Part shown: one piece after another, positions 1,527-57,989 of the stretch
Position numbering within the stretch: the stretch's first letter is position 1
How the letters are laid out: the number at the start of each line of letters is the position of its first letter
Assembly: GCA_958009085.1 (NCBI GenBank)
Contig: OY253669.1
Location: 1,302,001-1,366,000, forward strand
Origin: Protoeuglena noctilucae
Lineage: Eukaryota
Reading direction: 5' to 3'
DNA length: 64,000 bases
Made by a program: the position numbers and the translations under genes
The notes under the pieces: generated by a model
Told to the model about the DNA's origin: nothing
Databases searched by the model: none
Seen by the model: only the letters and a program-made list of their open reading frames with translations

Positions 1527-2658
1527 ATGGAAGATCCTTACATACGGCAGCTCCTGTTAGAGTTCGAGAGTGCTCCCAAGGGCACGGCGCCGCCCGGCCC
1601 GACCGGCCATCCCATGGAGGACCTGCCCAAGTGAGGCCGGCGTGGGCGCCTAGGTGGCACGTGGCCCCGACGTGCCGCGCCGGACGTGCGGCCCTCCCAC
1701 CCTGCGCCGCTTGCAGGGACCTCGGAGAGGACGACGGGGACGAGGACCCTGCGCCCAAGCGACGGCGCGGCGCGAGCCCCGATGACGGGGAGTCCGGGGA
1801 CGAGGATGGGGGCCACAAGGGCGGGAAGCGAGGGCGGGAGGCCGCGCAGAAGAAGGCGTCGAGGGAGAAGCTTCGGAGGGAGCGCATCAACGAGCGGTTC
1901 TCCCAGCTGGCAAAGGTGGGGTGCGGCACAGGGCGCTGGCGGTGCGGGGGTTGGCCTGACCTGGTAGCCCCGTCGCAGCGCCCCGACCCTCCCGTCACCC
2001 CGCAGTTGATCGATCCCGGCGAAGTGCCCAAGACGGACAAGCTCTCGATTCTGGGGGACGCCATCAAGCTGATCAACCACATGCGTCAGCAGGTCTACCA
2101 GCTGCGGGAGCTGAACAAGTACCTCCAGGAGCGGGCGACCAAGTCGGAGTCGATGAGCATGTACCAGCGCTACGTCGCTGCGGGGGCGCAGGGCTTGCCG
2201 TTCGGGGTGGCGGGGGGTGGCAGCAACGTGGTGGACGTGGGCGTGGGCATGGCGGGGGCGGGGCCCAGCGGGGACCGGGGGGGCGCAGACCCCAGGCGAG
2301 GCGCCGATGCGATGTGCGTTGCGCCTGGCTCGCTGCTGCAGGGGCGCTCATACCTGACGCTGCTTCCCTCTTTGCAGTGCGAGGGGTTCGATGGTTCAGG
2401 GGGGGCCAGGGGGCCTCCCTCCCCTCCCGGCGCTGCCATTCATGCCCCTGCAGGCGAGTAGTTGTTTGCTGCTTGCAACAGTGCTGGGATTGCCGAGGTG
2501 GGTTGTGAAGTCAGCACGCCTACCCTACGTCGCGACTGCAGATGCCGGGACAGCCCGGTGTCGGGCTGCCGGGGGCGGGGCAGGAGACCAGCAAGCCGCC
2601 CATGCCGTGGATGAGCACCGACGGTTCGGACCCGATGCTGCGACCACCAGCAGCATGA
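1527..2658 (+). CDS. bHLH-ZIP transcription factor, plant subgroup IVc-like (ILR3/bHLH105/bHLH104 type), about 5 exons
   Basis: KKASREKLRRERINERFSQLAK|LIDPGEVPKTDKLSILGDAIKLINHMRQQVYQLRELNKYLQE matches the ILR3-type basic-HLH plus zipper. The spliced C-terminus is MPWMSTDGSDPMLRPPAA*. Two introns (2296-2377, 2454-2541) need GC donors. The start codon is tentative. Confidence 0.85.
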
Positions 2659-2985
2659 GCACTTGCACAGCGTTGGGTCGTTTCTGGCTGCTGTCGCAGG
2701 ACTGGAGAGTGTTTGCAGCGAAAGTCTCGCGCATCGAGTGTAGTTCGCCATGTGAAGCAGCCGAACAGGGTGCGCGTGGGAAGAAAGACTGGTTTGAGCT
2801 CGTTGCAGGGCACCACTGCCAGCGCTCCGCCGATCCCGGACAGAAGGAAGGCTCTGCGCCGTTGGTTTCAAAACACAGCTACTCTAGCTTGCCCCAGAAC
2901 CGCGGAGAGCGGTTTTGGGAGCTCCTAGGCCCTTGCCACGTTGCCACGCATTCGTGGGGACTGGAGAGCGAGTCGGGGGTCCGCA

Positions 2986-5837
2986 ATGAGCGTCGCGACG
3001 AGGCTCTCGAACTCGTGTGGACGCGCGCGGGCGCGGGCCGCGGTCGCTCACGCATCCCGGCCGGGGCCTGTCGGCGCGCGAGCCCCCGCCACGAGCGTTG
3101 AGGTGGGCTTCCTCACCCGGGCAGTCGTCACGGGCTCTGGATCTATGCGCGCCCGGAGCCTTTGCTTCTTCGCCCTTGCATGCACCGGGCCATTCGCGGC
3201 TTGGCTGGGACAGGCAGCCGGGGTCGGGTGTCCAATGACGTTTCTGTTGGGGCCCCCGCAGGCGCTAGTTTCGGCGGTCCTCGACGTCGTCCGCCGTGGC
3301 GACGAGCTCCGTGACATCGGCATCGAAGCGGTGCAGCTCGCGATCGGCACGGGACCGCGACGCGCGGCTCAGAGGGGGGTCACAGCAGCGGTGGCCCTGG
3401 CCAGCACCGCGCAGGCGCTCGTCAACGCGCGGAGGAGCGGGCAGGAGCTGCGGCCAGAGGCAAGCGATGATATGCCTACGTTGCAGCACACCCGCGGGTC
3501 GCCCGCGTTCCTGCAGCGACGCGCTCAGGGCTCTTTGAATGCAGGTCGTCTTGCGCGAGCTTTTTGAGAAGCTCGGGACCACGTACATCAAGCTGGGGCA
3601 GTTCATCGCCTCCTCACCGACGCTTTTCCCCGAGAGCTACGTTCTCGAGTTCCAAAGGTCGGTCAGAAGCCGCCCGCTTGCGGAGACGCTCCCTTGTGTG
3701 ACGCAACGCGCGCCCACCCACCGTGCCTGTGGGCCCCGCCGCAGGTGCCTGGATCGTGCGGAGCCGGTGGACTACGAGACCATTCGCACGATCATCCGCT
3801 CCGAGCTGGGCCGGCCGATCGAGGAGGTGTTTGAGTTCATCGACCCACGGCCTTTGGCCAGCGCCTCCATTGCCCAGGTGCGTGGGGTTCCCGCCGTTTG
3901 CGCTCTTGCCGAGCAGTGCGGGCGACGCGCATGCTTCACTCTGCCGTGGCGAGCTGAGGCATTTCGTCTCTAAGTGGCACTTGGCGATGACCTGTCATCC
4001 GTTCGGGTCTAGCAGGTCCACTCGGCCGTCCTGAAGGGCAGCAAGCAGGACGTTGTGATCAAGGTGCTCAAGCCCGGTGTTGAGGATGTCCTCACGGTCG
4101 ACCTGAACATGGTCTACATCGCCAGCCGCTTGCTAGAGTTCATCAGGCGAGGGGCGGCAGAGATGGGGCGGCACATTTGCGTGATCGTGCTGTGTGATTG
4201 CAGTGTCCGTGGCATCCATAGCCCAGTCCCTGTCTTACCCACGACAGCTGGGCTGTTACCGAGGACGCCCTGGCTCACACCGCTCGCAGCCCCGACCTCA
4301 ACCGCGCCTCGCTGGCCGCCATCGTCGGTGACCTGCGCTCGTCCATGTTTGAGGAGGTCGACTTCACCAAGGAGGCCCGCAACATGAAGGAGTTTGGGAC
4401 GTTCCTCGATCAGACCGGCATGAGGATGGTCGCCACGGTGCCATTCGTCTATGAGCAGGTGCGGATTGTCATGACAGGCATGAGTGCGCAGCGCAGCGCG
4501 TGTAGCCTGCCCTCGACTGGCGTGGCTGACGGAGACTGCACGGGCTGCGTTCGCGAGCCACCCGGCTGCGCTCAGGGGTTGTAACAATGCCAGCGTGCTC
4601 TGGGTGTCCCGCAGTTGTCGACGAAGCGCGTGCTGGTCATGGAGCGCCTCTTCGGCGTGGCGCTGTCGGATTTGGACGGCATCCGGAAGGTCACGCAGCG
4701 AGAGCCGGAGCTCGTCCTCATCGCGGCCCTCAACACCTGGCTCACGTCCCTCGCCTCCTGCCGCACCTTCCACGCCGACCTGCACGCGGGCAACATGCTC
4801 GTGTTACGGTGCGTGGGCGCACAGTCCATCGGCCATGCCGCGTCGCTAACACTGAGCGCAGCAGGCCACCCAGCGTCGCTCGCGTCTAATCCATTTCCTT
4901 TGCTTCTCCCAGGGATGGTCGTGTCGGGTTCATCGACTTTGGCATCGTCGGGCGCCTGTCTCCCGGCACCTGGCAGGCCCTCCAGACGCTGTTAATCGGC
5001 GCAGCGACCAAGGACTACACCTCCGTGGCCAAGGCCCTCGGTGAGCACTCGACTGCGCGGTTGCGTAAGACCCTTCGCAACTGTGCTGGCGCCATCCGCC
5101 AAGCCGGGCAGAGTAGGGCGCATGCAGTGCCCATGGCTGCCCAGCGAGGGCGGTGGATCTACGGTACGGTCAACAAACGTGCCGAATAACCCTGCTCCGG
5201 GTCACTTGATGCGAGTTTCCTTCCAAACGACCTGCAGTGACGATCGGGGCGACGAGCGACGTTGTCGACATTGACGCCTTCTCCCGCGACATCCGCGACC
5301 TCTTCACGGCCATCGACCAGCTGGATGCCCGCCTGGTGGCGACGGGCACCAGGGGCTCCAACGGGGCTGGGTCTCGGAGCTTCGAGGCGTCGGTTGTGGT
5401 CGACGAGGCGCAGGTCAACCGCCTGGTGCTCGACATCGTGCGGTGAGCGCGACGCATCTTGATCTGTTCGAATGCGTGCCACTGTGACGGAGCCTGGGGT
5501 GCCTGGCGCAGGCCGAGGCGGCTTGCGCACGGCGCACAGTGGCGCTTTGCTTTGCTTGGCATGCAAGGCGCCTGGTGCCGCGCCCTCCGCAGGGTTTCGG
5601 AGACGCACGGGCTGCGGTTCCCGCGCGAGTTCGGTCTGCTTCTGAAGCAGCTTCTCTACTTCGACCGGTACATCCAGGTGCGCCAGCGTGGGTGTAACAA
5701 GCGCGGGTCTCTAGCTGGTGTGCCTGACCTCGGCGTCAGTGGCGACGAGAGAGGGAGCTGTGTCCTGTGCCTATCCTCTGCAGATATTGGCCCCAGAGCT
5801 GCAGCTGCTGAGTGACTCGAGGATCCTCTTCCGCTGA
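2986..5837 (+). CDS. ABC1K9: Plastid ABC1/UbiB atypical kinase, ABC1K9-like, multi-exon
   Basis: Exons read LGTTYIKLGQFIASSPTLFP, PLASASIAQVH, VVIKVLKPGVEDVL, MFEEVDFTKEA, FHADLHAGN, GFIDFGIVG and FPREFGLLLKQLLYFDRY, ending ILAPELQLLSDSRILFR*. The N-terminus looks like a transit peptide. Confidence 0.9.
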
Positions 5838-10248: not shown

Positions 10249-13200
10249 TCATTCGTCTCGCGAGTCGAGCTCGTCCAGCACCTCGTAAGGGTTGAGGATG
10301 CCGGCGATCCTCGCGGCCTGCTCCCGCTCGACCTGTTTCTGGCGCTCGACCTCGTCCTCGTACAGAGCCCGGTTGTCCGCGTCCGCAAACTGCTTGGCCT
10401 GGACGAGGAAGTCCCGGAGGTGGTTCTTGAACGTCGCGACGTCCCGGAAAGCCAGCATGCCCTCCACCGACGCCCGGATCTGCCCCTCGGTGAGGTTCGG
10501 GAAGGACGTCTTGAGGAGGTCCGTCGTGTACTGGGCGACGAAGGTGCGGTTGTCCGGGAAGCTGCGGGGCGGAGGGGTAAGGGAGGGCTAAGAAGGGGAG
10601 GGAAGGGGGGCGCTGGGTGACGCTGGCAGGCGAGGCACGGGGCTGGGGCGACGGTGCAGCAGAGTGCAGGTGCGAGAGAGGGGTTGCGGACGGCGTGGCT
10701 GGAAAGGGGAGCGTGCGAGAGTGAGGCGCGGCGTGGCATGGCCGTGTCGATGTGCATGCAACGTGCATGCGATGCGTGCAGCATGCGACACAAGCAGCAC
10801 TGTGCGCGTGCGTGTGTTGCCCCGTCCCGTCTCGCCTGGCGGTGCTGGCGTCCCAGAGGGGTCCCTTGAGGGTGCCGTCCTGGCAGATGTTGAAGAGGTG
10901 GTGCATGATGCGGACGTGCATCTTGAAACCAGGCTTGTGGAAGGTGTCGGTCATGACTGCGATGACCTCGCGCAGCAGCATCGTGAAGTACTGCTGGTGG
11001 AAGGGGGTGGCGAAGTCCTGGAGCGACTGGAAGCTCCCGAGCATCTCCGCGAGGAGGTTGAGCCCCGTCTCGGCGACGTTGCGCTCCGTGTGCCGGATAG
11101 CCCACACGATCGAGTCCATGACCAGCTTCATCTGCTCGGAAGACATGGTGAAGAACACACGGAAGCAGCGGCTGTTGATGGCGCGGAGGAGGCTGAAGAA
11201 GCGCAGGCGGATTTCGGGGTACTGCGGGAAGCGAAGTGGGGCAAGGGGGCTTGGGGTGTGGTAGGGGGGTTGGGTGAGGGGCGGAGGAATGAGGGCAGCA
11301 GCAACGAGCAGGCGTGGTGAAGAAAACGCGACGAGTTTTCCAAAATAACAAGGCTGGGCAACGTGACACCACGTCGCGGCCGGCACAGCCCACGACTCGT
11401 CACCGGGCCATGTCTTCACCTCTCACTTCACCTCTTGTTAACCCCATTCGCCCGCTCTCGCCGGCCCTCACCTGCGACATGTCCTGCGTGATCATGCCCA
11501 GGGTGGTGTCGAAGACGTACTGGAGGATCTTGGGCACAAACGCCTCGGCCCTCGACCCCAGCTTGTCGACGAGGGTAGCGTACAGGAACAGGACCTCAGC
11601 GTCCCTGGCGTCGGGCGCGGACGAGGCGAAGTCCCCCAAAATGGGGTCCTCCATGGCGGGCATGAACTGGTCGGCGACGGCGGCCATGGGGGAGAAGGAG
11701 GACAGGGCGGCGGGCGACTGCGGGGGGTGGGCGGGGTGGGGAGGCGTGGGGCGGGTGGTGGCGTGACGGGCGGGCGAAGGATGGCCAATGAGGCAACGGT
11801 GGCGCCAGGGAGCGAGTGAGGCGCAGAGCCGGCGTGGCTCGCAGCAGTGCTCTCTCCGACAAGGCTGGAGGGGCGCGAGGGGGCGTAAGAGCGGGTGTGC
11901 GAGGGGGCGTGCCAGGTCAAGTGTGTGGAAGCGTGAGAGCGGGCACAGAAGGGGCCATTGTACCATCTCTCACCCCGAAGAGCATCCCCTCGTCGCAGGT
12001 GGACACGAACATCTCGAGGAGCCGCAGGACGGCCTTCTTGACCGTGCGCATGGCCTTGACGGCCGCGGTTCGCGAGGCCGCAGGGTCCTGGGCCACGGCC
12101 GCGCTCACGAGGCGCGAGTAGTGCTGGTAGACCTGGAGCATGCCGACGAAGATGCGCTGGAGTTGCGGGAAGAAGTTGGGCCCCAGGGAGTGGCACACGG
12201 CCGCGTTGGTCTGCAGCACGCTTGCCAGGTCGCGCGCCAGGGACGCGTCCCGGAGGACGTCCGGGTTCTGCGCCGCCTGGGCCAGGATGCCCTCCCACAG
12301 CATGTTGGGCCGCGCCATGAGGCCGCTGCGGGTGGGGCAGGGGCAAGGGCGGGGCGGATCAACCAGTGCCATCAACAGCCACCATGCAAGCAACCCATCC
12401 ACGCCACCCCAGCCCCAGCCGCATCACCCCAGCCCATGCTCACGTGAGGTACTCCTCGACTTCCTTGACCTGCGTGGCACTACCGACCATGAGCCCGACC
12501 GCCTCGTAGAAGAGGTGCACCTGGCGGGGCTCCAGGTCGCTGATGGGCGACTGGGACCCGCCCTCGTAGAGGGCCTGCAGGAGGGTCTGCGCGGGGGAAG
12601 AGCGGGGGCACAGGCGCTCAGCAAAGGCCCGGTGGTCACTCCCGTGGGTTGTCACCCCCCTCCCCGACCACTTGCACTGGAGCCCCTCGCAGCGACAACA
12701 CCCCCGCGTCCGGGATGCTCAGAAAACCATTCGTAGCAGAGCCACGCATCTCACCGCGAGGAAGGGCGGCTCCCCCGGGGGCGGCTGCACGAACTTGCGT
12801 TTGCACTTGGAGCAGATCTTGAGGAAGGTCTCGCAGGCCATGTCCTGTACGCCCGGATGCTTCTCGTGCATGAACTCGAAGAGCTTGTTGACCACCGTCC
12901 GCAGGAACTTCCAGTGCTGCCGCAGGAAGCGCGGGTACTGCCCCACCACGTACATGATGTTGCTGGCGATGGCCGCCTTGTTGTCCTTCCCGGACACCTT
13001 CTCGCACAAATCGAGCAGGTCCTTGATGACCATCACCAGGAAGCGGCTCTCGTCGTCCGGGTCCATCGTGCCAGAAACGCTTCCGATCGCCCAGCAGAGG
13101 CGGTTCAGAGCGCCCCATGACTGCGGGGGCGGGGAGGGAACGGATCCAGTCGCGCCAGAGTCGCCCGGCTTCTCCCTTTTCAACCAGCCAGTGGACGCCA

Positions 13201-16200
13201 CACTGTCAGTCTGTGCGCCCCCTTGGCCCTGCCGCTGCCGACGTCGCACTGCTACCCTCACCGCCGCTCGCCCCTCCCAGCCCTCTCCCGCAGCTGTGGC
13301 TGTCCCTCGCCCCCATCGTGCCCTCACCTCGGACCGCGGCTCGCCCCTCCTGGCCCTCTCCTGCGCCTCCTTGCGCTCCGCGTGCAACGTCTTGAGGTGC
13401 CCCAGCATCTTGTCCCGTGTGTCGTCCATGTTGAGGTGCGTCAGGTACACCAGCGCCTCCCGCATCACCTTGTACAGCGCCACCACGTCCGCGTCCTTCA
13501 TCTCCTCACTGCGGCGAACACGAGGCGCAGCGCAGGTGAGCGCCGCCACCATTCCAGCCGACTTCCCAGGTACTGCGCGGAGGTGGCCACTCCACGCGCC
13601 CCGCGCCCCTCACCGGACCACGTTGCCGTTCTCGTCCTCGACAAGCAGCACCTCCTCGGGCTTGGCCATCTTGTCCATCATCAGCACGCGCAGGTGGCTG
13701 AGGATCTCGGCGTAGAGCTGCTTGCGGGGAGACGCGCCCGCGCCGCCGGGCGCGCCAAAGGGCGACGTCTCCGGCAGCGCCTGCAGCGGGTGGGTGTTTT
13801 CCTGGGAGAAGAGGTCGATGACCAGGTGGTGCCAGTAGTCCATGCACCCCTTGAACACCTCCGGGTCGTCCACGTACGAAATCTGAGGTCAAGAAGGGCA
13901 CCGGGAGACGTCACAGTCCTGCCGTCGCCGCTTGCGGGCGAGGTCGACAACCGCCGGGTGGCGACGCTCATGGATATCCTCTTAGAGACGCAAGTGATGC
14001 GCGTGCTCGCTCACAGGCGCGCTGGCTCGCTCTGCTGGCGCGTGCTTGCGTACTGACTCAAGTGCATGAGCCCACTCGCCTGCAGCAGGTACGCCAGCCC
14101 CTCCAGGAGGGTGTGGTGGGCGTCCGAGTTGGCCTCGAGTGCCCCGAGGTGCGCGCGGAAGAAGGTCTGGAGGAAAAGGGCGAGGTCCTGCACGAACTGC
14201 GCCTCAGAGTCCCCCAGGGTCGGGTATCGCTCCGCGAGGGACACGGTGCGGGGGATGATGGAGGCCACGACCTGCATGACGGCGATGTACATCTGCGGGA
14301 GGCGAGAGGCGGGCCGAGCGGGGTCTCGCGTCGCAGGGGGCACGGTCAGTCAGGATGCGGTGGTCGCTGTCGGGCCGTGGCGACGGCGCAGGGGCATCCA
14401 ACCAGCATGCAGCAGGCAGGCGAGGGCTTCGGCGAGCTATCAGAGTCGCCGGCCCTGTGCGTGCCACGGCATGCGCCCGCCATCGCGCACCTGCACGAAG
14501 TACGCGTCGTGCTCCTGGGGAACTTGGAGCGACCCGACCTCGGTGAGGCACTTGAGGACGAGGTTGCGGTACGCCTCGACGGGGAAGAGTCGCAGGAGGG
14601 TCTGCGCGAGGCTCGTCTCGAAGATGTACCCCAGCGGGACCCAGGACAAAAAGGCGTGCATGGTGCCCAGGGCGGCGCGCATCAGCGAGGTGCCGACGTT
14701 GTCCGCGGTGAGGACGAACATGCAGAGCTCGTAGATCTGCTTGAACTCGTTGTTGAGCTCGGCCTTGAGCTCCTTGGTCTTGGCCGCCGTGATTTCGCCC
14801 TTGCTGAAGTCGAACACCTCCTCGCTCAGCAGCTTGAGGATGACCAGGCTGTTCTCGCACAGCGACTCGGACACCTGAGGCGGGGGTGGGAGGGCGCGGG
14901 CGGGGTCAAGGAGCCCGCGAGGCGGCACATGGCGGCATGACAAGCGAGCGCCTGGGGCAGCGTCGAGCAAGCACCCAGGACAGCGTTAATGTGTGACCGG
15001 CCAAGGTGGCAAGGTAGCACCTTGGACGCCGCGACGAGGTCCGGGATGAAGGAGCGCCAGCGGCCGGGCCAGTCGTGCTTGAGGATCTGGACGAGGATGA
15101 TGTTGACCTTGTTCAGGAAGAGGTGCTGGGCGCGGAAGGCCCCGGGGTCCTTGCAGATGTTGATGATCACGTTCGACACGTAGCTCTTGATGCCCTCACG
15201 CTGCTCCATCGGCAAGAGACCCCTGCGCGCGATCGCCGGGCGGGGGCGATTGCTCTCGGATCCCCGGAGGGGCCGGACACTCGGGCAAAGCACTTGGGCA
15301 GGGCAGCCGCCCCGACCACTAGGCGGGCTGCCCGCTGGCACACGCGCTCACCACTTGTACTTGACCGTCTGCTCCAGTATTTGCAAGCCAAAGAACTTGG
15401 TGTTCTGCGCGGGGAACGTCGAATTGGTCACAACACGAGTTGCACAGCGCGTGCTGGACCCGTACCCGCCCGCCCGCCGCAGCTCGCCTGGTCCTGGCTC
15501 TTTTCCAAGATCAAGTCCACCCTGGTCCACGCATCGGGATGCTCGCTGAACGTCCGCATGACCTCGTCCGCCGCCTTCCTCTGCAAAGGGAAAGCAAACG
15601 CAGCGTGCCCCGTCCGTTCCGCGCCTCAGCTGAGCTGGTCGCGAATTGCCAGGCACCCAGAGCAGCAAGACAATGGATAGGTCGAGACAGGCTGCCGCTG
15701 GAGGCAAGCGGACCAGCGGCGCGGCGACGACGCCTCCCTGACAACGCGTGCGCTGAGGGCCGGGGCGGTCGGGGGGGCCAGAGCGCGTGCGGAGGCTCGC
15801 GACGTGAGGTATGCAAAAATATAATGGCGCGCGAGTCAGGGGTGGCGGAGCGGGAAGCCCCAGCACGGCGTGGGACGCAAAGACAGCTCGGTGCTCTGCC
15901 GTGCTCAGGTCGAGCCAGGCAGCCCGGCGCCATCGGTCGCGCCCCCCCGCGCCCGCTCCTCGAACAAAAACGGCAAGACAGATTCATATCGCACTCCCAC
16001 CGGGCCGTCTAGCCCGCCGCGCGTGCGGGATGCGGGCCTCTGGATGCGTCTGCTTTGGCCCGCCTCCCGCGCGCCTTCGAGCCCGAGTCGAGATCTCGCG
16101 CTGTGCTGCCGGCGGTTCGGAAGAGCAGCGAATGCCTCACCATCTGCGGATCCGCGGCGGCGTAGAAGGTCTGGATGATGGAGTCGAGCATGCCCACGTC

Positions 16201-16254
16201 CAGAGGCGTGCTGAAATCCAGCACCCGCTGGGACGCCGCCATGAGATCCGCCAT
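10249..16254 (-). CDS. XPO1: Exportin-1 (CRM1), about 15 exons
   Basis: [153 protein letters not shown]. Confidence 0.97.
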
Positions 16255-30612: not shown

Positions 30613-33898
<3,286 letters not shown>

Positions 33899-39500: not shown

Positions 39501-42500
39501 TCACCGCGGCACGCCCTGCTGCATGATGGTGAAGAGGGACTGGAAATTGTCCTGGCGGATGGCGTTGCGGCAGTGGGCCACAACGTCCGTCCCCGCCTGC
39601 CCCACCCGCAGCCGGGACGCGGCCTGGATGGACTGGTTGATCTTGCGCAAGCCCTCGAGGAGATTCTGCGCGGCAGATGGAGCGGTGCGTTGCTGTCCGT
39701 GCGTCGCGGCTACCCTCGCCAGCGCAGTCTCTAGGCCTTGCACGAGCCTCGTCTTGTGGCCGTGTCAGCCTTGGCCTTGCGCGCGCCGCCTCCGCGCTCA
39801 CCTTGTGGTTCGTGGCGCGCTTCTCGTGCTCCATCAGCAGGTCCCGGTTCAGGTCTTGCAACCGCGCGTACGACTCGAGCATGCCGTCCATGTCCTGCAG
39901 GATGCGCGCGTCTTCCGCACGCACCACCAGGGCCTTCACCGCGTTGCTCGCGTCCGCGGCTTCCGCTTGGAATTTGATCCGATTGGCGTTGTACTGCGCA
40001 GAGGGCGGGACTCGATGGCATTCATAGCCGGCCGCATTTAGGGGGTGCTTCACCGCGTGGTCTGTGATGACCGAGCTGCGGATCGCACGCGGCCCGTTTC
40101 GATCCGCGTCCGCTGCGTTTCGCGCCTCGCCTCGGATACGTCGTCGAGGACCTTCCCCAGTGCCTCCATTTCCAGCGGGAAGTAGGCCTCCGACTGTAGC
40201 TCATTGATTTGAAGGAACTTGCAGAGGTCCTGGACCATGTCCCCAGCCAAGGTCATGTTGTCCGTCACGATGGTCACCACGTTGCTGCGGGGGCGGCGAC
40301 GGAGCCCGTGATGCAGCTGCAGTGGGAGGCGTGGCCGTCGCAACTGATGCCAGCTCATGCCCGGCGGTCTCACCCTCCCTCCGTCTGGTGTGGCTTGGTC
40401 CGCACGAGGCTGTGGCTCCTGTCGCGGAGGCTCACGAACGCGGCCTCGATCTTCTGGGTGTTCTGGAGGCTGGGGAGCTTGGCGTTGAATGCGCTCTCGA
40501 TCCACAACGCGATGCGCTGCACGCGCTCCTGCACGACGAACGTCACTTGCCTGCGGGAACGAGACGACGTCACTGCAGTGTGCGCGCTCGATGCCAGAGC
40601 CGGCTGGAACACGCCGACAGCACATGGCACATGACCCGAGCGCCGCGTGCGACCGGCACAAGTCACGCACGCTCACCCTGACGGCTCCTGCTGCACTTGG
40701 TCGCGCCCGATCACCGAGTACATGGCGAACTTGGGCAAGTCGAGGTCCGTCTCATAGATGTGGGTGACGTTGGCCGTGGGCGTGGACGATAAGAAGACCT
40801 TGATGTGGACGATGGCAGCGATGTCCTTGGTCGTCCGCATCGGCACCGACACGGTCTTCTTGGGCTCGGGGCAGTACACCATGCTGCAGCGACGGACGCG
40901 TGCATCGTGTCAGTGCTCGGGGTCGTGGTCAGTCCGAAGGGCGCAGTGCCGGCACGTCCCATTCCAAACTCACCTCTCTCGGTCGTCAAAGACCCCCTCC
41001 GCCATCAGCACAATGCACCGGATCAGGCAGTCGGTGGACGCCTCCACGAACAGCTCGAGGGCGTCGACGGTCTTGGCCGTCTGCCACTCCACCAGGACCT
41101 TGGTCCCGGCCGGCAGCGCGTGGTTCGCCTGGCCCTGCGCCTGCCGCTGCAGGTCCCGGTCCCGCATCTTCTTACCCGCCATCTCGACCTGCTCCAGCTG
41201 CGCCATCAGCTTCTGCTTCTGCTGAGTCAGGGCCGACAGCTTCCGGGCGTTGGTCACCATCGCCGCCCGCTGCTCGTCCACGGCGCCCTCGTAGCCCCTG
41301 TGTGCGCGCGGGATCAGCCGCTGTCCGCATCACGCCTGCGCCCCATCGCTGCTGTCACTGCGACGCTTTTTGGGCCACTCACCGCACTTCCCCATCCACC
41401 CCGCAGATGACCAGCTCGTCCCTGCCCTTCCTCCGCAGGTCGCCCACCAGCACGGAGGCCACGCCCTGCCCAATTGAGTCCTTAAACACCATCTGCCCGT
41501 TCTGCTCCCCTCGGACCTCGATCTTCCCATTGCTCCAACCGCTCACCAACTCTGCCACCCCGTCCCCATCCAAGTCGAACCCCTTGATGCAAATAGGCAC
41601 GTGCCGGCTCTGCGCGCCATAGACGCAGCCGTCTGTTCAACGGCGGGCCATGTACACGCATGCACATCCCAAGCTCACACCCGCAGCTTTGCCCAGGCAG
41701 CGGCAGCGCCCACCTTGACTCGCCAGGCGCGCCGCTCCCGGCTGTAGATGCCAGTGGTGCCATTGGACAGGGCGTAGGCGAACCGCGGGCCCTCGATGGT
41801 GCAAAGCGACGTGACGGCATCCATCTCCGGCATGGTCGCTGCAGCCGGGGAGGTCGCGAAGATCTGTCTCGCAGTTCCGAGCGAGACAGAAGACAGCCGC
41901 AAGCACAGGAGAGCCAAGGAAATCTGCCCAGTAAGGCAAAGGGTCTTGACTTTAAGTTCACCCCTGGTGCATTGCTCGCCATGCCATCTGCAGAAACGAG
42001 CAAAGCTACTTTTTCTTCTGGCTTCTCACCGACGCACTCCTCGTTATCGAATATCTTGACCTCCGCGTCCTCCGTGCCCACCAGGATCTCCTTGGCTCCG
42101 TCGTTGTTGACATCGGCCGCGGCCAGCGCCGACACTGCGGGCGCAGGCGGCGGCGTGGGACATCCTGCGCCGCCACTCGCTACGCAAAGAGAGCAGCCGA
42201 GCACAGCGCTGCTGGCCTCAGGGAGTGGCACTCCCTTTGACCACGTGCGAATGGGCCACTGCCCTACCAACATGCAGCATCGGGGCACGCCACAGCCCCA
42301 TTGCAATCTTCACCCGTGTCGCTCGTGACCGTCCACAGTCGCTCCGTGCCCGTGCGGTCGAACGCAACGAGGGTGCCGTGCCCGCCCACGAGCGCCACTT
42401 GCTCGTCCACGTTCCCGACCTTGTCCACCAAAATCTCTGCGGGCCCAAGCCACAATCAAGCTCGGGAACGCCGCCGCCGCAGTACCCGCATCGCCGCGCG

Positions 42501-43019
42501 TCGCCGCCTCGCGCCCGCACCGGTGGCCCCGTCCGCGACGTCCGCGTAGAAGAGGTCGCGGTTCTGCTCGCAGTCAAAGGCCTGGACGGAGCTGGACGTG
42601 CCGATGAACAGGTGCTCCTTCTTCGACCCGTCCGTAAGCATGCGCCCCGAGGCCAACGCCGTGATGTCGCGGTTCACCCGGATGTACTGAGACCGGTTCA
42701 TCTCCGCCCCGGGGGTCTCGTTGGGATTGTACACCAGGATCTGCGGGCGCCGCGCGAGAGAAGGCTTCCAGCGACAGGTCGAAACAGAGACGTGCCTGTC
42801 CTGCCCAGGCGACGAGGCACGCGCCTCGCGGCGTCGCGAGATGCGCGGGAGGGCCGGGCATGCGGCGCAACGGGCGCGCTGGGGCCGGCATGAGCCACTC
42901 GCCTGGCCCCCGGTGGTGGCGCACGCAAAGCACGCATGGCCCTCATAGAGCTGCCCCACCGCCGCGCGCTTCTCCCGGATGGGGTCGGTGAGCGTGAGCT
43001 GGAAGGACGGGACCAGCAT
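39501..43019 (-). CDS. BBS2: Bardet-Biedl syndrome 2 protein (BBSome subunit)
   Basis: MLVPSFQLTL..FACATTGGQ|ILVYNP; AFDCEQNRDLFY; DVNNDGAKEILVGTED; FAYALSNGTTGIY; FDLDGDGVAELVSGWSNGK; LPKFAMY; LAGDMVQDL; LVVRAEDARIL; RATNHK|NLLEGLRKINQSIQAASRLRVG..CRNAIR. Confidence 0.95.
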
Positions 43020-43393: not shown

Positions 43394-44652
43394 ATGGCCC
43401 CTAAGAAGGTGGCAAAGAACCCTATGGCCAAGGCCAAGGCGGCCGAAGCCAAGGTGCGTCCCCCGGGCTCCGGAGACCGCGCTCACGGGCTCCAGGATCC
43501 CTTTCCGCCCCACGGTTCCGGCGCGCCTTTCACAGCCGGCCTCTGGGCGCGGGGCTCCTCGCGGGAGTCCGGCGGGGCCGAGCTGGGCGTCCGGGACGCA
43601 TGGAGCCGGTCCCCTTTCCGCGCCCGTGCTCGCTGGGGAATAATTGCTTTTGAACGCGCCCCCCTCCCCGTCCCGCAGTCCGACCCCCTGTACGAGAGGA
43701 GGCCCAAGACCTTTGGGATCGGCCAGGCGCTGCCTCCCAAGCGCGATGTGCGCCGGTTCGTCAAGTGGCCGCGCTACGTGCGCATCCAGCGCCAGAAGCG
43801 GGTCCTGCTGCAGCGGCTGAAGGTCAGGGCCCGGCGCCAATGTGCCTGTACGCGCCGGGGCCTGTCGGAGCGCTGGCGAGCTCGCCGCGCCTGTCGAGTG
43901 CGGTTGGTTGCCCTGACTGAGCGCTCTGGACGCCCGCAGGTGCCCCCGGCGCTCTTCCAGTTCACCAGGACGCTGGACAAGAACGCGGCGCAGACGCTCT
44001 TCGGGCTGCTGACGAAGTACCGGCCGGAGGACAAGGCGACCAAGAAGGCCCGCCTGCAGAAGGAGGCCGAGGCGAAGGCGAGTGGCGCCCGGGCGATCGC
44101 GGCCGGCCTTGGCTTGCGCGGAGGCCGCCGCCGTCCCCCTCCGCCCTGGGCCGCCGCGCGCCGCCCGCGGCCGCGCTCCTGCCCTCCTGGAGTCGCCCAA
44201 TATCTGTTTCTCCATCGCCGCAGGCCGCCGGGAAGACCCCCGAGAAGTCCAAGCCCGTGGAGGTCAAGTTCGGGATCCACCACGTGACGCAGCTGGTCGA
44301 GGCCAAGAAGGCGCAGCTGGTGGTGATTGCGCACGACGTGGACCCCGTGGAGCTGGTGGTGTGGCTGCCCGCGCTGTGCAAGAAGATGGGCGTGCCGTAC
44401 TGCATCGTCAAGGGCAAGGCGCGGCTGGGGACCGTAGTGCACCAGAAGCACGCCGCGGCCCTGTGCCTGACGTCCGTGCGGAACGAGGACCAGCGCGAGT
44501 TCGCCAAGATCGCCGAGACGTGCAGCGACATGTTCAACAAGGGGTCCAAGATCGGGTGGGGCGGCGGCGTCCTGGGCTACAAGGCGTCCAAGAAGCTCGC
44601 GGCGCGGGAGAAGCTCATCGCTAAGGAGCTGGCGCAGCGCGCCGCCGTCTGA
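43394..44652 (+). CDS. RPL7A: 60S ribosomal protein L7a (eL8), 4 exons
   Basis: [101 protein letters not shown]. Confidence 0.98.
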
Positions 44653-45392: not shown

Positions 45393-46038
45393 TTTGTCCT
45401 GCGAACGGGAGCAAGGCAACGGCGGGCTTGTCAACCGCCAGTGCGGGAACAGCTGGCGAGGCCACCCGGGCTTGCAGCCTCATGCCACAGCGTTCTCATC
45501 GTGCTCGCACAAGACGTGGGGCGCGCCTGCCGCGCGGGAGGGAGCTGCAGGAACGTGCGACATGCACAGGCCTGTCTGGAAAGCTTCCCGCGCTTACTCG
45601 GAGCCTAACTACCCGCCTCCGCTTCCTCGTCTAATTTCCATCCGCAGGGGCGTTTCAGGACGGCACCAAACGCGCGGGAATCGCGCGGTCGTCTCCCCCC
45701 ATGCTGGCAGCTTTTGCCGAGCGGCGATGCCGGTTACAGGCCCTTACCCCAGATGCAGGACGCGCACAGACATAAGAATCGAACAAATTTGACAGTCTCA
45801 CCTCCTTACGTCCTAATCGGCCTCGGCGACGAGCGTGGCAATGGCCTACGAGACGGAAGAAGGTGCGGCAAGGCGAATGGGGCAGCGCGATGGCAGCCTT
45901 GATGGTCAGAAACAGTGCAGCGCCGCAGCATGGCGGAGGGGGCCAATGGATAGGGGCTGAAACTGGCAAGGAGTGCACCTTGCCAGTCATTGCGCCGTTT
46001 CCTGCGATCGGATCGCTCGACGGGCCCTGGATCAGGAT

Positions 46039-48733
46039 TTAAACCACGGTAGGGAGCCAGAGCTCCACTACGTTGACGCCTTCCAGCTCCGCGTTCGCCA
46101 GGAAACGGGGCGCGACGCGCACCACACCGCCGGCGTCACGCAGCAAAGCCCGGGCCATCAGAAGCGCCGCAGCTCCTGAGCCAGCGACCGTCCCGTCCTC
46201 ATCTGCCTCGTCACGAGCAGCCGCGAAGGAAGCGTCTACATCAGACACCCGGCCGTCGTCTTTCCACCCCGTCACGGGCGTGCCCTGGTCCACGCAGGCG
46301 ACACGGACCCACCCCTCCGACCCATGCCCGCACGTCAGGACGACCGTGCCCCCCGGGGCCGACCTCTGCAGCGCGCTGTCCAGCACCTGCCCCACGGCCC
46401 GGCGCAAGACATCGCGGGGCACCGCCACCACCGCGTCTGACCCGGCCTCCAGCTCCCCGAGGGACGCAGTCGCCTCAACGTCCGGCACGGACAGGTCAGC
46501 CCCCATGTGTAGCTCCACGCCAACGCCCATGGCGCGCCCCATGCGTGCCGCTGTGGCCACCACCGCCTCCAGCTCCTCGCCCACGGCGCACCACCCGTCA
46601 GGCCCACGCTCTCGGCGCGGGGGCCCCGAATACACCGCCCCACCTCGGCCCTCCACCTCGCCGACTTGGACTGATCCCACCTCTGGCAGCGATGCCCCGC
46701 CGGCGCTCACGGCGCTACTTGCCGCATCAGAAAGAGCCGTGGATATGCGCCCCCCCCGCGCATCCACGGAGGCAGCCAGGACAGCAGCGGCCGGGACGGC
46801 AGTCTCGGCCGTCACATCGATCGTGCGGCCGCCTTCCTGCGACGCCCACCTCAGAGATCCCCCCTGGCTGTCCTGCACCCCGGTCCCAGCCCGCGGCTGG
46901 CGGCTTCCGCCAGCGGTAGAGCCTGCCAACAGGGCTGGCGGCACCGTGGTTGGACCCCCAGCTCCTGGAGTAGGAGGAGGCGCCTCGCTTGGACTCGGCG
47001 TCGGCGGCGGTGTCGTCCTCGCCAACAACAGCGCCGTCCTGGGGGGACGCGTCGCCCTGCGAGACAAGCGAGACGCACGTGACTGGACGATGGCCTTTAG
47101 TTGAGAGGACTCTGCACAGCCAGCACCGCGTCCGCCGCGGCCGCCTCACCCGCTGGGGCCCGACGTGGACTCTGGCAACTGCCGCCAGCGCGCTTCCCGC
47201 GACAGCTCTCCGATGCTCTGGCCGAGCTGCCTCGGCGCCGGCAGGCTGACCAAGGGCGCCGACCCTGGCGCGAACTGGGGCATGGCCGGCGCGCCGTACA
47301 GCGCCGACTGCAGCTGCGAGACGAGCCCTGCCAGCCGCTCCGACTGACTCAGGATCCCCCGGGCCATGTCTCGCTCGGACGCGCTCTCGAGGCCCGACAG
47401 GCGTGGCAGGAGCATGCTCCCCAACGTGCGCAGGACGGCCTGCATGTCAGCAGGGGACGTGGGCAGCGCTGGCGACAAGCGGGCCGCCGCTATCCCCAGT
47501 GCCACGGCCCAAGCCTGCGCAAAGCACGCATCTGGGCTCACTCACCAGCGGACCCCTGGTCTGCTCCACCAGGCCTCGGACCCACTGCCGCCTCGCAGCG
47601 CGCTCGACGCGCATGAGGGCCGACCGCTGCTCCATCGCGCACGCGAGCGCCACGGAACGCACGATGGGCCGGGCAGACGCCTCCTCCTCCGCTGTATAGG
47701 CGGTGCCGAGACCCTCCCCGGCTTGCGGGGCACCCGCTGCTCCCGTCTGCTGCCCCCGCCTGGACTTGGGACCGCCCCTGCGGCCCGGCGCGTCCCGCTC
47801 GACGACCAGCAGGCCCAGCACGTAATCCCCCTGGCAGAGCGGGAACACCAGGGTCCCTGACTCCGGCAGCACCACCACCTCCTGTTCCGCCAGCTCCTTC
47901 TGCAGCACGAGAACACAGCGTACCCAGTCCATTGGTCAGGTAGTCCCCATTAGTCAGCTGGTCGCTGACTGACATTGCTGTGTCACTGCGCCGTCGCACC
48001 TCAGTGAGCCCCCCCGTATCATCCCCAAGCACGAGGAGCTCGTTGGACGCCTGGAAGCTCGAGGCGGTCGACGGCTTGGGCGACGTGTCAGAGTCCTCGG
48101 CAGAGTCCGGCTTTCGCTCTGCGTCCGCACTACCGTTCGAGCTTCCACCGCCCGGCTGGGACGACCACACGTGCACACGGCGCAGCACAAGCCGGCCCGA
48201 CAGGAGCGAGTGGGACGTCCTCGCAAAAACCGTCGCGGTCACAGGACGCAAGGTGCCACGGCCTTTTCCTGGCTTCTGCGGCGGCCGACCACCGAGGGGA
48301 GTCGCCTGTGGGGCTCTGGGTGCCATCACCCGTCGTGGGATTGCAAATATCACGTACCTGTGCGAGTAAGGAGCCCAGGATACCGAGCTGAAGCGCGCAT
48401 ATTTCCGAAAACTCCTCCGTGAAGCCTCCCGAGTCCTCTGGATCGTCCAGCGGGTCCCCTTCCAGGCTATCTATCACGCGGTCGTCGAACGAGAGGCCCC
48501 GGGAAGGATGCCCGCGTCGCCTCACGGGCGGAGGAGCTTGAACGTGTCTGTGGGTGGGGGAACTCCTGTCAGATGTGAGTGAGGGGACAGCGGGCTGTCG
48601 CTGCGCGTCGAGCACGCCCCTCCGACTCTCACAAGCGCGCCCGATGCCACAGCGGTCGGACATGGCGGCGAGCATAATACGAGGTCGAACACGCGCTCGC
48701 TGAACAAGCCGCTGCGTGGCCCGTCCTGCTCAT
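46039..48733 (-). CDS. CSK: Chloroplast sensor kinase (Hik2-derived modified histidine kinase; GAF + DHp + HATPase-like)
   Basis: Transit-peptide exon MSRTGHAAAC..; EEFSEICALQL; VFART..GRLVLRRV; TLVFPL..VLGLLVVE; SVALACAMEQRS; LVEQTRGPL|AVLRTLGSML; LRRAVGQVLDSALQR..GGTV; VACVDQG; GGVVRV..VELWLP. Confidence 0.82.
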
Positions 48734-53562: not shown

Positions 53563-55551
53563 ATGTCCACTTGCCTGCGGGCAGATATCGTGTTGACGGC
53601 TCCGCGCGCACCTTTCGCGGCTCGTCCGTTCCGCGTGCGCCCTTTCCTGGCCGGGCCCTACGCCCGGCCCTATGTTGCACCGCGCGCCACGCCCCGGGGG
53701 GACGTCCCCGACCCTGCCTCATTAAGCCGTAACAAGTATGGCGAGAAGCGCCGTTTGACACAGCCAGAGCGCGTGAAGCTGCTCCGAGAGTTGCTGCGCT
53801 CGGGATCGATCCTCGCTGGCCCCTGCTGCCACGATGCCATCTCCGCTCGGCTCATCGAGCGCGCGGGCTTCGACTTCGCGTTCATGTCGGGCTTTTGCAC
53901 CGCCGGGGCCAAGCTAGGAGCGCCAGACACGGGCCTGATTTCGTGAGGGCCTCGCGCTGCCTCTTGCGTGCTGCCTTTCGCGCTGCTCCGGGTCTGATCG
54001 TGCTCCTCTCCACGTGGCCTTGCTCAGGTATGGGGAGATGGTTGACACGGGTCGATACATCCACGAGGCGACGGCCTGGCTCCCCGTGATTGGGGACGGG
54101 GACACGGGCTACGGCAACGCGATGAACGTGAAGCGGACGGTCCGGGGCTACGCACAGGCGGGCTTCGCGGGCGTGCTTATCGAGGACCAGGTGGCGCCCA
54201 AGTCTTGCGGGCACGTGCGGGGCAAGCGCGTGTGCAGCCGCGAGGAGGCCGTCTCTCGGGTGAGCGAAGGGCCCTGGTCCAGGCATGGGGGGGAGCTGGG
54301 GCGTGGCATCTCTCTGCGACCGGGCGACTTTACTGGTTTGCCCGAAGGTCCGCGCCGCGTGCGACGCGAGGGATGAGGGCGCCAACATTGTCGTGGTGGC
54401 CCGGTCAGACGCCCGGCAGGCGGTCTCGTTGGACGAGGCGCTGTGGCGTGCACAGGCCTTCGCGGAGGCTGGCGCAGACGTCCTCTTCATCGATGCGCTC
54501 GAGTCAGGCAAGGACGTGCTCTCGCACGTTTACAGGGGGGATCGACCTTGTCGGATGACCATGTTCAACCTGGAGCCCCTCGCTGGCTGTGGTGCAGACG
54601 AGGAGATGCGGGCGCTGTGCGCGCTCGGGGGCAGCGCGGCAGGGGTGCCCAAGATGGCCAACATGCTGGAGGGCGGCGGCAAGACGCCTCTTCGGTCCCG
54701 TGAGGCTCTCCAGGAGATGGGCTTCTCCCTCGTCGCCTACCCTCTCTCCGTCTTCGGCAGCGCCGTCGCCGCCATGGAGCGGGCCCTGGCTTCCCTCAAG
54801 TGCGCTGGCAGCCCACGCTCGCGGGCGCGGCCACCGGTACACGTGCGCCACGTGTTGCCACGTGACGCGCCCGTTTGCCCTTTCGTCGCAGGGAAGGCGT
54901 GGTCCCCGGGGAAGAGCAGATTCCCAGCTTCGCCGACCTCCAGAGCACCGTGGGCTTCCCAGAGTACTTCACGGAGAGCGACCACTACAGCGTGCCCGCT
55001 CCCGAGGCCGTCGCGGGGGCAGCCACGGCAGCAGCGACTGCGACAGCCGCAGCGACGGCGGCGGCCTCTGAGAGTATGGGAAGCGCTGCGAACGGCGACC
55101 CCTTCTCGAGTTCGGAGATGGAGGTGTGGGAGACGGAGGAGCGGACGTATGTGGAGGCAGACGAGGTGCTGGTGGAGGAGGAGGAAGCGGGCAGGTCACG
55201 CAAGGGTGCGAGCGAGGAGCTGGCGAGGTTGCGTGCGGAGAAGGCCCGCTCCACCCTGCGCGTCAGCCTGGTCGACAAGGACGGGGCGGAGAAGCTCGCG
55301 ACCAGGATCCCCGCCACCTTCCTCGACGGGATTTCCGGTGAGGGCGATGGCGTGCGGGAGCTTGCTCTGGGGCATGCCGGCCGGTCGGCGAGTGTGCCAA
55401 CACTCCGCTGCCTGCAGCGCTCGTCCCCGTGTCGGGCAACGAGCTCGAGCAGCTGCTGGACGAGGCGCTGGGGAAGAAGAACCGCGTCAAAGGAGAGCCG
55501 TTGATAGTTATACCCCTCAACGGCGATCGCCTGCGCATCTGGCTCGAATGA
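53563..55551 (+). CDS. Isocitrate lyase/PEP-mutase superfamily enzyme (plant carboxyvinyl-carboxyphosphonate phosphorylmutase-like), organelle-targeted
   Basis: GPCCHDAISARLIERAGF; FMSGF; PDTGLIS|YGEM; PVIGDGDTGYGNAMNV; IEDQVAPKSCGH; ARSDAR; GADVLFID; ANMLEGGGKTP. An acidic linker leads to a C-terminal domain ending DRLRIWLE*. Confidence 0.9.
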
Positions 55552-55763
55552 GGAAAGCACGAAGCTGGCATCAGAATGCGTCAGAATGCCGCGACTCTGC
55601 TATCCGTGACGCGATCCGCCACCGCGCTATGATTCACGCGGTGCGGTGCGCGGTTGGATCGCAACGCGCGCCGTGTGTGGCAGCCACACAGGCGGGGAGC
55701 ACAGCGCCGCGTGGCAGGCCGTAGAGACGCATCTGCCGGTGGCCGTCGATTCGCGGGGTGATC

Positions 55764-57989
55764 ATGTTCGATGTGAACTTGAGTCCCGAGACGATTGGGC
55801 CCGAAGTTTCGGGATCCACGATGGACGGGCTCCAGGTGCGTGCCCACCAACGCCGCTTGCCCTCTCGGGTGTGGCCGACGCGTTCCAGCAGGAAGCAACC
55901 TTTGCTACATCTCGCTGGCGATCCGAGCGACGCCTGCTCACGGCCCGCTCTGCGCCGTCCAGACCTCAGCATGCCATGCGTTGCGGGGGCGATGGCCGCG
56001 CGGCGCTCTCGGACGTTCCCTCGGCGCGTTCTCCGTCCCCGCTTATGTAGACTTCAAACACGTTCTCCGTGAAGACCCCGTCCGCGCCGGGAGCGGGGCT
56101 ATAGTCGCGCGCGCGGCGGCTGGCCCACCAATGCAGCGTTCCCGGCGTTCCGCGCGCAGTCCTTCGCGCGGGCGGCCATATCCGAGTGCCGCGACAACTT
56201 CGACGCCAGCATAGCCGAGTTCGCGTCCGCGTCGAGCGCCGGGGAGCAGGTCCAGGCCGAGCTTGCCGCCCTGGAGGAGAGCATGAGGTGACTTGGGCCA
56301 CCAACGTCCCCGCGGAGCTCGGCCGGCCGCTGGGGCGCGACTGATTTATCGGGAGATACTGCTTCTTGCTTTCGGAAGGGTCCCGCGTCCCGAGCGGGCC
56401 CGGGCCGCGCCGTGCTTCTCTTGTAATTGTGCTTCACGACCAGCGAGCCGCTGCGCCTCAGCGCCCGCGCCGGCCGGGTCGCCGCAGGGCCGAGACGCTC
56501 GGGGGCCTGGGATTATTGTATTATGCGGAGAAGGACAGTTCATCGCGGCTCTTCGACATCGTGCGGTGCAAGGCGTGTGACCTCACCATGCACAGTTGGC
56601 GCTTCATGGAGCATCTCGGGGATTGTAGCGGCGCTGCAAAGGCGAGGGCCGCTCGTGCGCGCAATTGCAAGAAGAATGTTCCATGCCGCGCGCGCCGATG
56701 CCGTGCAGCCGCGCGGCGGGCCACGGCTGGGTGTGGATGGCCGTTGGGCGCCGTGCGCAGCTGCCGGAGATCCCCGATACGCATCGTCTCGAGGCCGTCA
56801 AACACCGCGCGTGTTTCATCGTGTCGTTTCCGCTGTCTCGCGCGTCCGTCCGCGCCCCCTCGGCGCGGAGCTTGCCCACGCACCTGCCCTCGCAGGTTTC
56901 CCCTCCCCTCCGCGCCAGGACAGCGTCCGCGAGGGCCGCCAGCGCCGGGGATGTCGAGGTCTTCTCGCCTGCTGAGCCGCGCGAGGCCAAACCGGCGGCC
57001 GGCCGGGGCTCCGCGGGGGTGGCCAAGCCCGCGAGGGGGAAGGGCCGGCTGGCAGCTCCGGCCCGCGCGCGACTGGGCGTCGTCCCGGCCGCCGCGGCGC
57101 AGCCCAAGCCCGACCGTTCGCCGCGCGCACCTCCGGTCTGGACCGTGCCAGTCCCGCGCCGGCCGCGCTCGCGCCTCCTGCGCGTGCCCCGCACGTCCGC
57201 CCCGCGCTTCCTCGCCGACCTGGAGGGCCGTGCGGACCCCGCGCCGGCGGACTACGCGCCGCCCGCACCCGCAGCGCGCTCCCGCGCCCAGGCGGGCCCG
57301 CCCTCCGCGCAGGCGCGCCCCGTCGCCTCCAAGGGCAAGCGCGGGCGGCTCCCGGGTCAGCGCCAGGCGACCTCCCCCGCTGCGCCGCCCGCCTCGCGCC
57401 CCCGAGGCCCCGCGCCGCTCCCGGCGGGCCCCGTCGCCTCCCTCCCCGACGTGGCGTCCCTTCCCGGCACCCTCTCGGTTCCCGCGGCGCACGCCCCGCG
57501 CCCAACGGCCTTCCCCGCCGTAGACCTCCCCGCCCCCGGCCCCTCAGACCCCGCCGCCTGGGCGCCCTTCGCGCCGTTCCCCCAGGGGGCCTTCCCCGCC
57601 CCCGGCGCGCACCCCATGTTTGGGGACGTGGGCGACCACCTCGAAACGGACTCTGGCGCGCTTCTGGCGGCGCCCGTGGACGTCATGGACGACTTAGGTG
57701 AGGGATTTTGCGGGTCGGAGGCCGCGCCATTGCGGGTTGGTTGAGGATGGCGACTTGGGTGGTTGGAGGGCCGGGTGACGGCCAGCGTCGCCGTGCCATG
57801 CTTGAGGGACCTGATATGAAATGATGTCGATCTCGCGTACACCTTCGGCGAATGCCTGCAGGCCCGCCTCCGCTGGGCAACATGGGTCGTGACGATGACA
57901 CGCTCCTGCCCATGTGGGAGCCGCTGGGGGCGCCGGGCACGCTGGATGAGTTCATGCCCCGGACGGAGCTCAAGGGTTGGGTCCACTGA
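55764..57989 (+). CDS. Sgf11/ATXN7L3-type C2HC zinc-finger protein (possible SAGA deubiquitination module subunit) with Pro/Ala-rich tail
   Basis: Exon about 56487-56641 encodes VRCKACDLTMHSWRFMEHLGDC (C-x2-C-x11-H-x3-C with RFxxHL, as in Sgf11). Flanking exons (..MDGLQ|SFARAAISEC..; VSPPLRART..; ..ELKGWVH*) splice in frame. The start is uncertain (55764 or 55821). Confidence 0.55.

Follow-up and report, generated by a model that had tools for sequence, protein, structure and literature searches.

The window analysed here is a 64-kb stretch of nuclear DNA from Protoeuglena noctilucae (positions 1,302,001 to 1,366,000 of contig OY253669.1; 64–70% G+C), in which ~23 intron-dense genes carry ~8 introns each, mostly 75–300 nt long. 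Our subject is the set of introns in this window that begin with GC instead of GT and end with AG (GC-AG introns), at least one of which was confirmed in at least 8 of the ~23 genes. The best protein matches of the genes lie in green algae and land plants, at ~65% identity, and the protein searches brought up no named entry close to identity. G+C content is given as 66% for the whole genome and is 0.665 in the 156 predicted introns. An Rfam scan of the 64-kb window returned no RNA gene. Marine metatranscriptomes contain RNA with ~40% of the words sampled from one 10-kb stretch of it, and we take the organism to be a marine alga of the green lineage.

Thirteen GC-AG introns were confirmed, two are probable, and five are candidates that fit the donor consensus (Table 1). 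An intron is called confirmed where RNA contigs, or homologues that cross the junction gap-free, support it, i.e. on evidence independent of the donor motif. The first-pass annotation, which restored reading frames by eye, had proposed a strong excess of GC-AG introns, with 17 firm sites and one possible site (34968). This excess is borne out: all 18 sites carry the motif (G at −1, followed by GC(A/G)AG), 12 of the 17 firm claims were confirmed and one further intron (donor 40130) was added, and the probability of observing at least 13 such introns among 150 at a rate of 2% is 1e-5. The annotation's estimate of 17 in 120–130 introns, above 10%, stands if consensus-only cases are counted; its denominator was somewhat low, and among the ~145–155 coding introns of the window the GC-AG share is ~9% for the confirmed cases and would reach ~13% if all consensus cases were real.

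Table 1. GC-AG introns and candidate GC donors in the window. A slash in the donor column marks the exon/intron boundary; "finder" means recovered by our gene finder, and "new" absent from the first-pass annotation.
Feature	Position	Strand	Donor	Status and evidence
GC-AG intron, ABC1K9-like kinase	3460..3544	+	gag/GCAAGC	confirmed; relative's P0224 crosses gap-free, same length; finder
GC-AG intron, ABC1K9-like kinase	4147..4289	+	cag/GCGAGG	confirmed; P0224 gap-free, LEF(L/I)-S-PDL; Pfam ABC1 85 and 91 on either side
GC-AG intron, XPO1	10562..10835	-	cag/GCGAGA	confirmed; RNA exon piece; CRM1_C 259->265; gap-free alignment (codon 1001)
GC-AG intron, XPO1	13883..14079	-	cag/GCGAGT	confirmed; gap-free at 353/354, 7 homologues; RNA contig 1770 nt
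GC-AG intron, XPO1	15405..15487	-	cag/GCGAGC	confirmed; SQDQ/NTKFF gap-free (69/70), 7 homologues; RNA ends 15488
GC-AG intron, SPX-VTC-DUF202 (Vtc4-type) gene	20155..20267	+	cag/GCGAGC	confirmed by RNA (X1, X3); Pfam VTC 154/158
GC-AG intron after exon 1, DSP/PTP-type phosphatase	22959..23226	+	gag/GCGAGT	confirmed; homologues and relative L001; missed by finder
GC-AG intron, phosphatase	23846..23965	+	cgg/GCGAGT	confirmed; exactly these 40 codons (120 nt) missing in 6/6 spanning homologues
GC-AG intron, ABC1K5-like kinase	28046..28187	+	aag/GCAAGG	confirmed; 13-residue stretch gap-free against 6 covering orthologues
GC-AG intron, ABC1K5-like kinase	28906..29117	+	cag/GCGAGT	confirmed; junction gap-free against orthologues, region moderately conserved
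GC-AG intron, SRP54 M domain	31475..31635	-	aag/GCGAGG	confirmed; flanking exons = 395/396 of chain 2j37_W
GC-AG intron, BBS2	39994..40130	-	gag/GCGAGG	confirmed; 602/603 of chain 6vbu_2; finder; new
GC-AG intron, ribosomal protein eL8 (L7a)	44078..44223	+	aag/GCGAGT	confirmed; flanking exons = 114/115 of chain 8ip8_AA
GC-AG intron after exon 1, BBS2	42741..42902	-	cag/GCGAGT	probable; approximate fit to bovine BBS2
GC-AG intron, PEP-mutase/isocitrate-lyase-family gene	54508..54597	+	cag/GCAAGG	probable; finder score gain small, 2.3
Candidate GC-AG intron, bHLH gene tail	2296..2377	+	cag/GCGAGG	unverified; consensus and finder only
Candidate GC donor	2454..2459	+	cag/GCGAGT	unverified; no acceptor assigned
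Candidate GC-AG intron, acyl-CoA-synthetase-like gene	34968..35061	+	cgg/GCGAGG	unverified; finder; downstream exons match no profile
Candidate GC-AG intron, unnamed gene	56642..56760	+	aag/GCGAGG	unverified; finder score gain 1.8; no Pfam match
Candidate GC-AG intron, poorly modelled gene	46837..47022	-	ttg/GCGAGG	unverified; finder only, micro-exons beside; new

Evidence for intron removal

Splicing was assessed in three metatranscriptome runs (X1, X3, and X4) and one DNA run (X10), over positions 10501–30500 of the window. This stretch yielded 49 joints, 15 of which were listed, and the statements on joints made here rest on those 15. It contains eight GC sites, six of which are not readable directly as joints among the 15. 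Fourteen of the listed joints follow GT..AG, read directly or as its complement. The remaining joint, 20151->20265, leaves out 113 nt and can be shifted by 4; it fits GC..AG at 20155..20267 in the Vtc4-type gene, and is present in two of the RNA runs (X1 and X3) but absent from the DNA run. The intron it defines starts with GC, as do all 18 sites of the first-pass annotation, and ends with CAG, whereas the AG acceptors of introns drawn by the gene finder are AG by construction. The XPO1 gene provides RNA evidence of a second kind. An RNA exon piece at 10836–11221, seen in X1 and X3, places the start of the minus-strand intron at 10835. One RNA contig spans exactly 1770 nt between this exon and the exon at 14491–14871, which is the summed length of the seven predicted exons, including those beside the GC intron at 14079. 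RNA pieces in both X1 and X3 stop 26 letters from 15513, i.e. at 15488, beside the GC intron at 15487. Removal from mature RNA is thus seen directly at 20155; at 10835, 14079, and 15487 it is shown by exon pieces or by the length of a contig. Run X4 holds unspliced contigs (13779–14087 and 19808–20168) and was therefore not counted for or against splicing.

Two further features of the RNA contigs were noted. Positions 15513–15514 read T and G in all three RNA runs, and A and A in the window and the DNA run, a difference that is probably a variant in the natural population and not editing. Contigs from X1, X3, and X4 run into non-window sequence, leaving loose ends at 11683, 12338, 23261, 28203, and 29092. 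Three loose-end strings were sought in the window and are absent from it; they derive from elsewhere and have no bearing on the GC donors. The contigs in question may be chimeric assemblies or repeats.

At nine further sites, removal is indicated by the continuity of homologous proteins; counted by junction, gap-free or exact protein continuity is found at 11 junctions beyond 20155 and 10835. The predicted XPO1 protein aligns end-to-end with seven homologues. At the first intron of the phosphatase gene (22959), the homologues P0258 and P0263 match PPLPR.PA.EM, followed by a single residue (the split codon) and by GPT.W. In the contig L001 of a relative, exon 1 stops at the same point and is followed there by an intron with a GT donor. 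A database entry that is 100% identical to the phosphatase (P0253) is an unspliced read-through across the phosphatase intron at 23846.

The two probable introns fit their homologues less exactly. Exon 1 of BBS2 (residues 1–38) aligns with residues 1–38 of bovine BBS2 at E = 1, and exon 2 matches from residue 68, ten residues too few; the alternative GT donor would remove 19 aligned residues. At 54508, the upstream exon is aligned through its last residue and the spliced protein is 3–4 residues longer than its relatives in the PDB, to which retention of the intron would add 30 more. Neither Pfam (E ≤ 10) nor NCBIfam provided continuity that could be used at 34968, 56642, 2296, 2454, or BBS2 exon 1. 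The donors 2296 and 2454 had been proposed as needed to restore the bHLH frame; without splicing, the frame also stays open as far as a stop near 2463, and neither donor is required.

Two gene labels were revisited. By its Pfam domains, the gene labelled "VTC4" (18097–21604, plus strand) is of the Vtc4 type, a polyphosphate polymerase with SPX, VTC, and DUF202 domains, and not the plant phosphatase; not far from it, on the opposite strand (16455–17231, minus), is a separate small DUF202 gene. The label "Sgf11-like" for the gene at 56642 finds no support in Pfam.

Gene models with GC donors allowed and forbidden

An independent gene finder was built as a two-strand dynamic programme with codon log-odds, donor and acceptor matrices, and intron lengths, self-trained on the window. 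The converged model has 156 coding introns (133 GT and 23 GC), and recovers 17 of the 18 sites of the first-pass annotation, missing 22959. Setting the GC prior to 1% and scoring GC donors with the GT matrix left 17 GC donors among 154 introns; lowering the prior to 0.1% left 14. When each of nine other dinucleotides was put in place of GC as a null, 2–10 picks resulted, with no common consensus, as against 17–19 for GC. Forbidding GC donors lowered the model score from 3064.5 to 2891.3, and poor GT sites were substituted, e.g. GGC/GTCAGA at the RNA-proven intron at 20155. The proposal that GT-only finders would mis-draw these genes is therefore upheld.

The finder has faults of its own. Neighbouring genes were merged at 2454–3261, 22463–23226, and 37780–38017, and micro-exons appear in the genes at 44959–48675 and 49345–50505. 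The predicted intron 2454–3261, which fuses the bHLH and ABC1K9 genes, is probably false. The GC picks at 37780, 46079, 48273, and 53913 lack the consensus and were taken as artefacts; that at 37780 lies beyond the end of the acyl-CoA synthetase gene. In all, ~10–12 introns of the 156 in the model are artefacts such as gene merges and micro-exons, which is why the usable denominator was set at ~145–155.

These results bear on whether the GC donors are themselves artefacts of frame restoration by eye, with transcripts using nearby GT donors or retaining the sequence. The motif RGGCRAG is frequent, with 89 copies on the two strands of the window (18 predicted donors, 32 other copies on the sense strand of genes, 29 antisense, and 10 intergenic), so that the motif by itself proves no donor. 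The introns at 23846, 42902, and 54508 contain no stop, have lengths divisible by 3, and could be translated if retained, and public protein sets do hold such read-through open reading frames (P0253, P0001, and P0222). Nonetheless, the RNA joint and the RNA exon boundaries, the fit of homologues at 11 further junctions, and the poor quality of the GT alternatives, which alter conserved residues, refute this explanation for 13 sites, and as an account of the GC donors in general we regard it as most improbable.

P0001, P0222, and P0253 are open reading frames of its unspliced DNA that run from exon into intron, and the regions concerned are 14829–15209, 4640–4990, and 23628–24128. A protein search with an XPO1 exon did not return the organism's own spliced protein; the 100% match, P0001, is an unspliced read-through.

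Donor consensus and the origin of the GC donors

The GC donors have a tight consensus. Of the 18 sites in the first-pass annotation, 16 have A at −2 and the other two have G, while 15 have G at +3 and the other three have A. Every one of the 13 confirmed GC donors matches RG/GCRAG, whereas only 5 of 14 RNA-confirmed GT donors match RG/GTRAG (Fisher p = 0.0006), in agreement with the earlier description of tight GC and degenerate GT donors. The same tendency is seen in the whole gene model, where +4 is A in 21/23 GC donors versus 85/133 GT donors, and −2 is A in 19/23 versus 76/133. GC makes up 18 of 54 donors with strong flanks and 5 of the remaining 102, and four of those five were judged artefacts. 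Acceptors are highly uniform: of the 15 introns confirmed by RNA, 13 have GCAG at the 3′ end and two have CCAG.

The GC-AG introns are ordinary U2-type introns. They have GC..AG ends, are removed from RNA, and have strong remaining donor positions. The U12-type donor box is RTATCCTT; the GC donors observed here are all GC(A/G)AG and do not match it. Compensation by a strong remaining donor consensus is the classical picture for GC-AG introns, and Thanaraj and Clark reportedly described such compensation in 2001.

We infer that GC pressure is the cause of the high frequency, with compensation through U1 pairing. In this account, which is probably correct, GC pressure at +2 has made ordinary U2-type GC-AG splicing common, and it is tolerated only at donors that otherwise pair strongly with U1. 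High G+C, by mutation or biased gene conversion, would keep turning the T at intron position +2 into C; the C would survive only at donors whose −2A, −1G, +3G/A, +4A, and +5G pair well with U1 and later with U6; and where this remaining pairing is strong, the single C-A mismatch would be tolerated, leaving about one in ten coding introns as GC-AG. Dinucleotide frequencies are consistent with such pressure. In intron interiors GC outnumbers GT by 2432 to 1070, so that an unconstrained +2 would be C in ~70% of cases. The observed values, 12% overall and 33% at strong-flank donors, fit selection for T that is weaker at sites with good pairing elsewhere. The phosphatase intron at 22959, which has a GT donor in a relative and a GC donor here, also speaks for GC pressure, and the frequent GC donors of other GC-rich algae provide a precedent. 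GC pressure at +2, one of two mechanisms put forward in the first-pass annotation, is accordingly the best supported and is plausible.

The other mechanism put forward was a spliceosome relaxed at +2. In its stronger form, an altered spliceosome (U1 5′ end, U1-C, Prp8, or U6) would accept C at +2, making GC a second regular class of donor. In favour of this explanation, the GC share of ~9–13% is ten times the usual, and acceptor scores and intron lengths do not differ between GC and GT introns, so that compensation at the 3′ end is not visible. However, indifference at +2 predicts GC donors with weak flanks and a C share near 70%, not 12%, and the 13 confirmed GC donors all have near-perfect flanks while the GT donors are degenerate. 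Since no weak-flank GC donor was confirmed, relaxation at +2 is not supported, and an altered spliceosome is in our view unlikely.

We also considered whether the GC donors arrived with a mobile introner family bearing a 5′ GC, as with D-IE1 in Micromonas pusilla, where 79% of GC donors are reported to lie in D-IE1 introns (PMC4815162). Such an origin would be in keeping with the orthologue of the ABC1K9 gene in a relative, which lacks all of this gene's introns, so that many may be gains. Among the 156 predicted introns of the window, however, no intron family with shared sequence was found: an all-versus-all blastn comparison gave three rows at E ≤ 1e-3, comprising two distinct matches of 19–20 nt. 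The equal lengths of GC and GT introns likewise argue against introners, and we hold this origin to be very unlikely.

Several observations weigh against GC pressure with compensation as the explanation, or against the figures on which it draws. A single one of the 15 listed RNA joints (49 in total) is GC-AG, and the GC-AG share was measured in one 64-kb window only. The sense strand of genes carries 32 RGGCRAG copies that are not predicted donors. The five consensus-only candidates depend on the consensus and on our own finder, which derived its GC matrix from donors that it had itself picked. The pairing argument draws on the general eukaryotic U1 5′ end. Finally, in the contigs L001 and L002 of a relative, which are richer in G+C (0.71–0.74), both readable introns begin with GT (n = 2), which indicates that G+C alone does not dictate the donor.

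Related loci and known systems

The relative represented by the genomic contigs L001 and L002 shares 77–81% protein identity with the window genes. Its phosphatase orthologue has only two introns, both at positions occupied by introns in the window gene (22800–25100). The first of these begins AG/GTATGA in L001 (minus strand, near 3060) and AG/GCGAGT at 22959 in the window, and is one direct GT/GC difference between orthologous introns, of the kind that the first-pass annotation suggested looking for. The ABC1K9 orthologue of the relative is an uninterrupted frame, whereas the window gene (3262–5837) has at least nine introns. Gene order also differs: L001/L002 carry the end of the Vtc4 gene, then ABC1K9, then the phosphatase on the other strand.

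The contrast in intron density points to massive gain in P. noctilucae or to loss in the relative, and a gap of this size, in relatives that are fairly close, may be the lead of greater interest. The intronless ABC1K9 gene and the two phosphatase introns of a relative at 77–81% protein identity are the basis for a bolder suggestion: that a large wave of intron gain took place here, the GC donors being a lasting mark of how the introns arose or drifted. If true, this intron-rich green alga would possess GC-AG as a second regular class of donor, and its U1 or U6 might be adapted accordingly; we think it unlikely. A set of metagenome loci (L052–L058, G+C 0.66–0.67) contains an ABC1K9-like gene whose introns are placed differently. 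The finder, which was not trained on them, draws ~30% GC donors with a CAG/GCGCG pattern in L052–L056; the result was not relied on, since the model, with its low coding yield there, is unfit for these loci and their intron positions differ. The loci may belong to another GC-rich alga with many GC donors.

The frequent GC donors have a practical and an evolutionary bearing. In annotation, GT-only gene finders will mis-draw a large share of this organism's genes. For evolution, the window adds one more independent case in which high G+C is tied to frequent GC donors. Introners confound the question of GC pressure in M. pusilla and the pelagophytes; the window is intron-dense and has no introner repeats, so that GC pressure with compensation can be separated from an introner-borne origin, and it offers a cleaner test case. 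A limited literature search returned no report of frequent GC donors in an intron-dense green alga without introners, and we do not claim that such a case is unreported.

Frequent GC donors have already been described in GC-rich marine algae, of which the window is a further example. In M. pusilla CCMP1545 GC donors are reported at 25.6% overall and 9.7% in regular introns, compared with 1.5% in M. commoda, and they were overlooked by the first, GT-only gene models (PMC4815162). M. pusilla resembles P. noctilucae in being a marine member of the green lineage with ~65% G+C, and its 9.7% in regular introns is near the 9–13% of the window. In contrast, the GC donors of M. pusilla are described as lying mostly in repeated introners, in a genome with ~1 intron per gene (PMC4815162), while the window introns are unique and number ~8 per gene.

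In the haptophyte Emiliania huxleyi, ~56% of donors are reported to be GC, a frequency ascribed to a G+C content of 65% (PMC4028052). As in the window, this is a GC-rich marine alga in which the AG acceptor is kept and gene predictors are misled, and its GC donors were verified by reverse transcription PCR. Unlike the window, where GC donors make up ~10% and occur only with a strong consensus, GC is the majority in E. huxleyi (56–60%), and GA donors are also described (PMC4028052).

The GC-rich pelagophytes Aureococcus and Pelagomonas, with 14–17% predicted GC-AG introns where a low-GC pelagophyte has 0.32% (bioRxiv 10.1101/2024.10.30.620910), show the same effect size as the window, and the same cause has been proposed for them. 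These algae are stramenopiles and, in contrast to the window, are reported to be intron-poor, with 0.14–0.92 introns per gene (bioRxiv 10.1101/2024.10.30.620910) or 1.45 in Pelagomonas (bioRxiv 10.1101/2021.10.25.465678). Part of their GC donors lie on introner elements, and the introners of Pelagomonas carry both GT and GC (bioRxiv 10.1101/2021.10.25.465678). For the ordinary U2-type GC-AG introns of plants and animals, which make up ~1%, figures of 1.2–1.5% have been quoted (PMC4815162). They share with those of P. noctilucae the GC and AG dinucleotides and the strong match at the remaining donor positions, and differ in frequency, which is ~10 times higher in the window.

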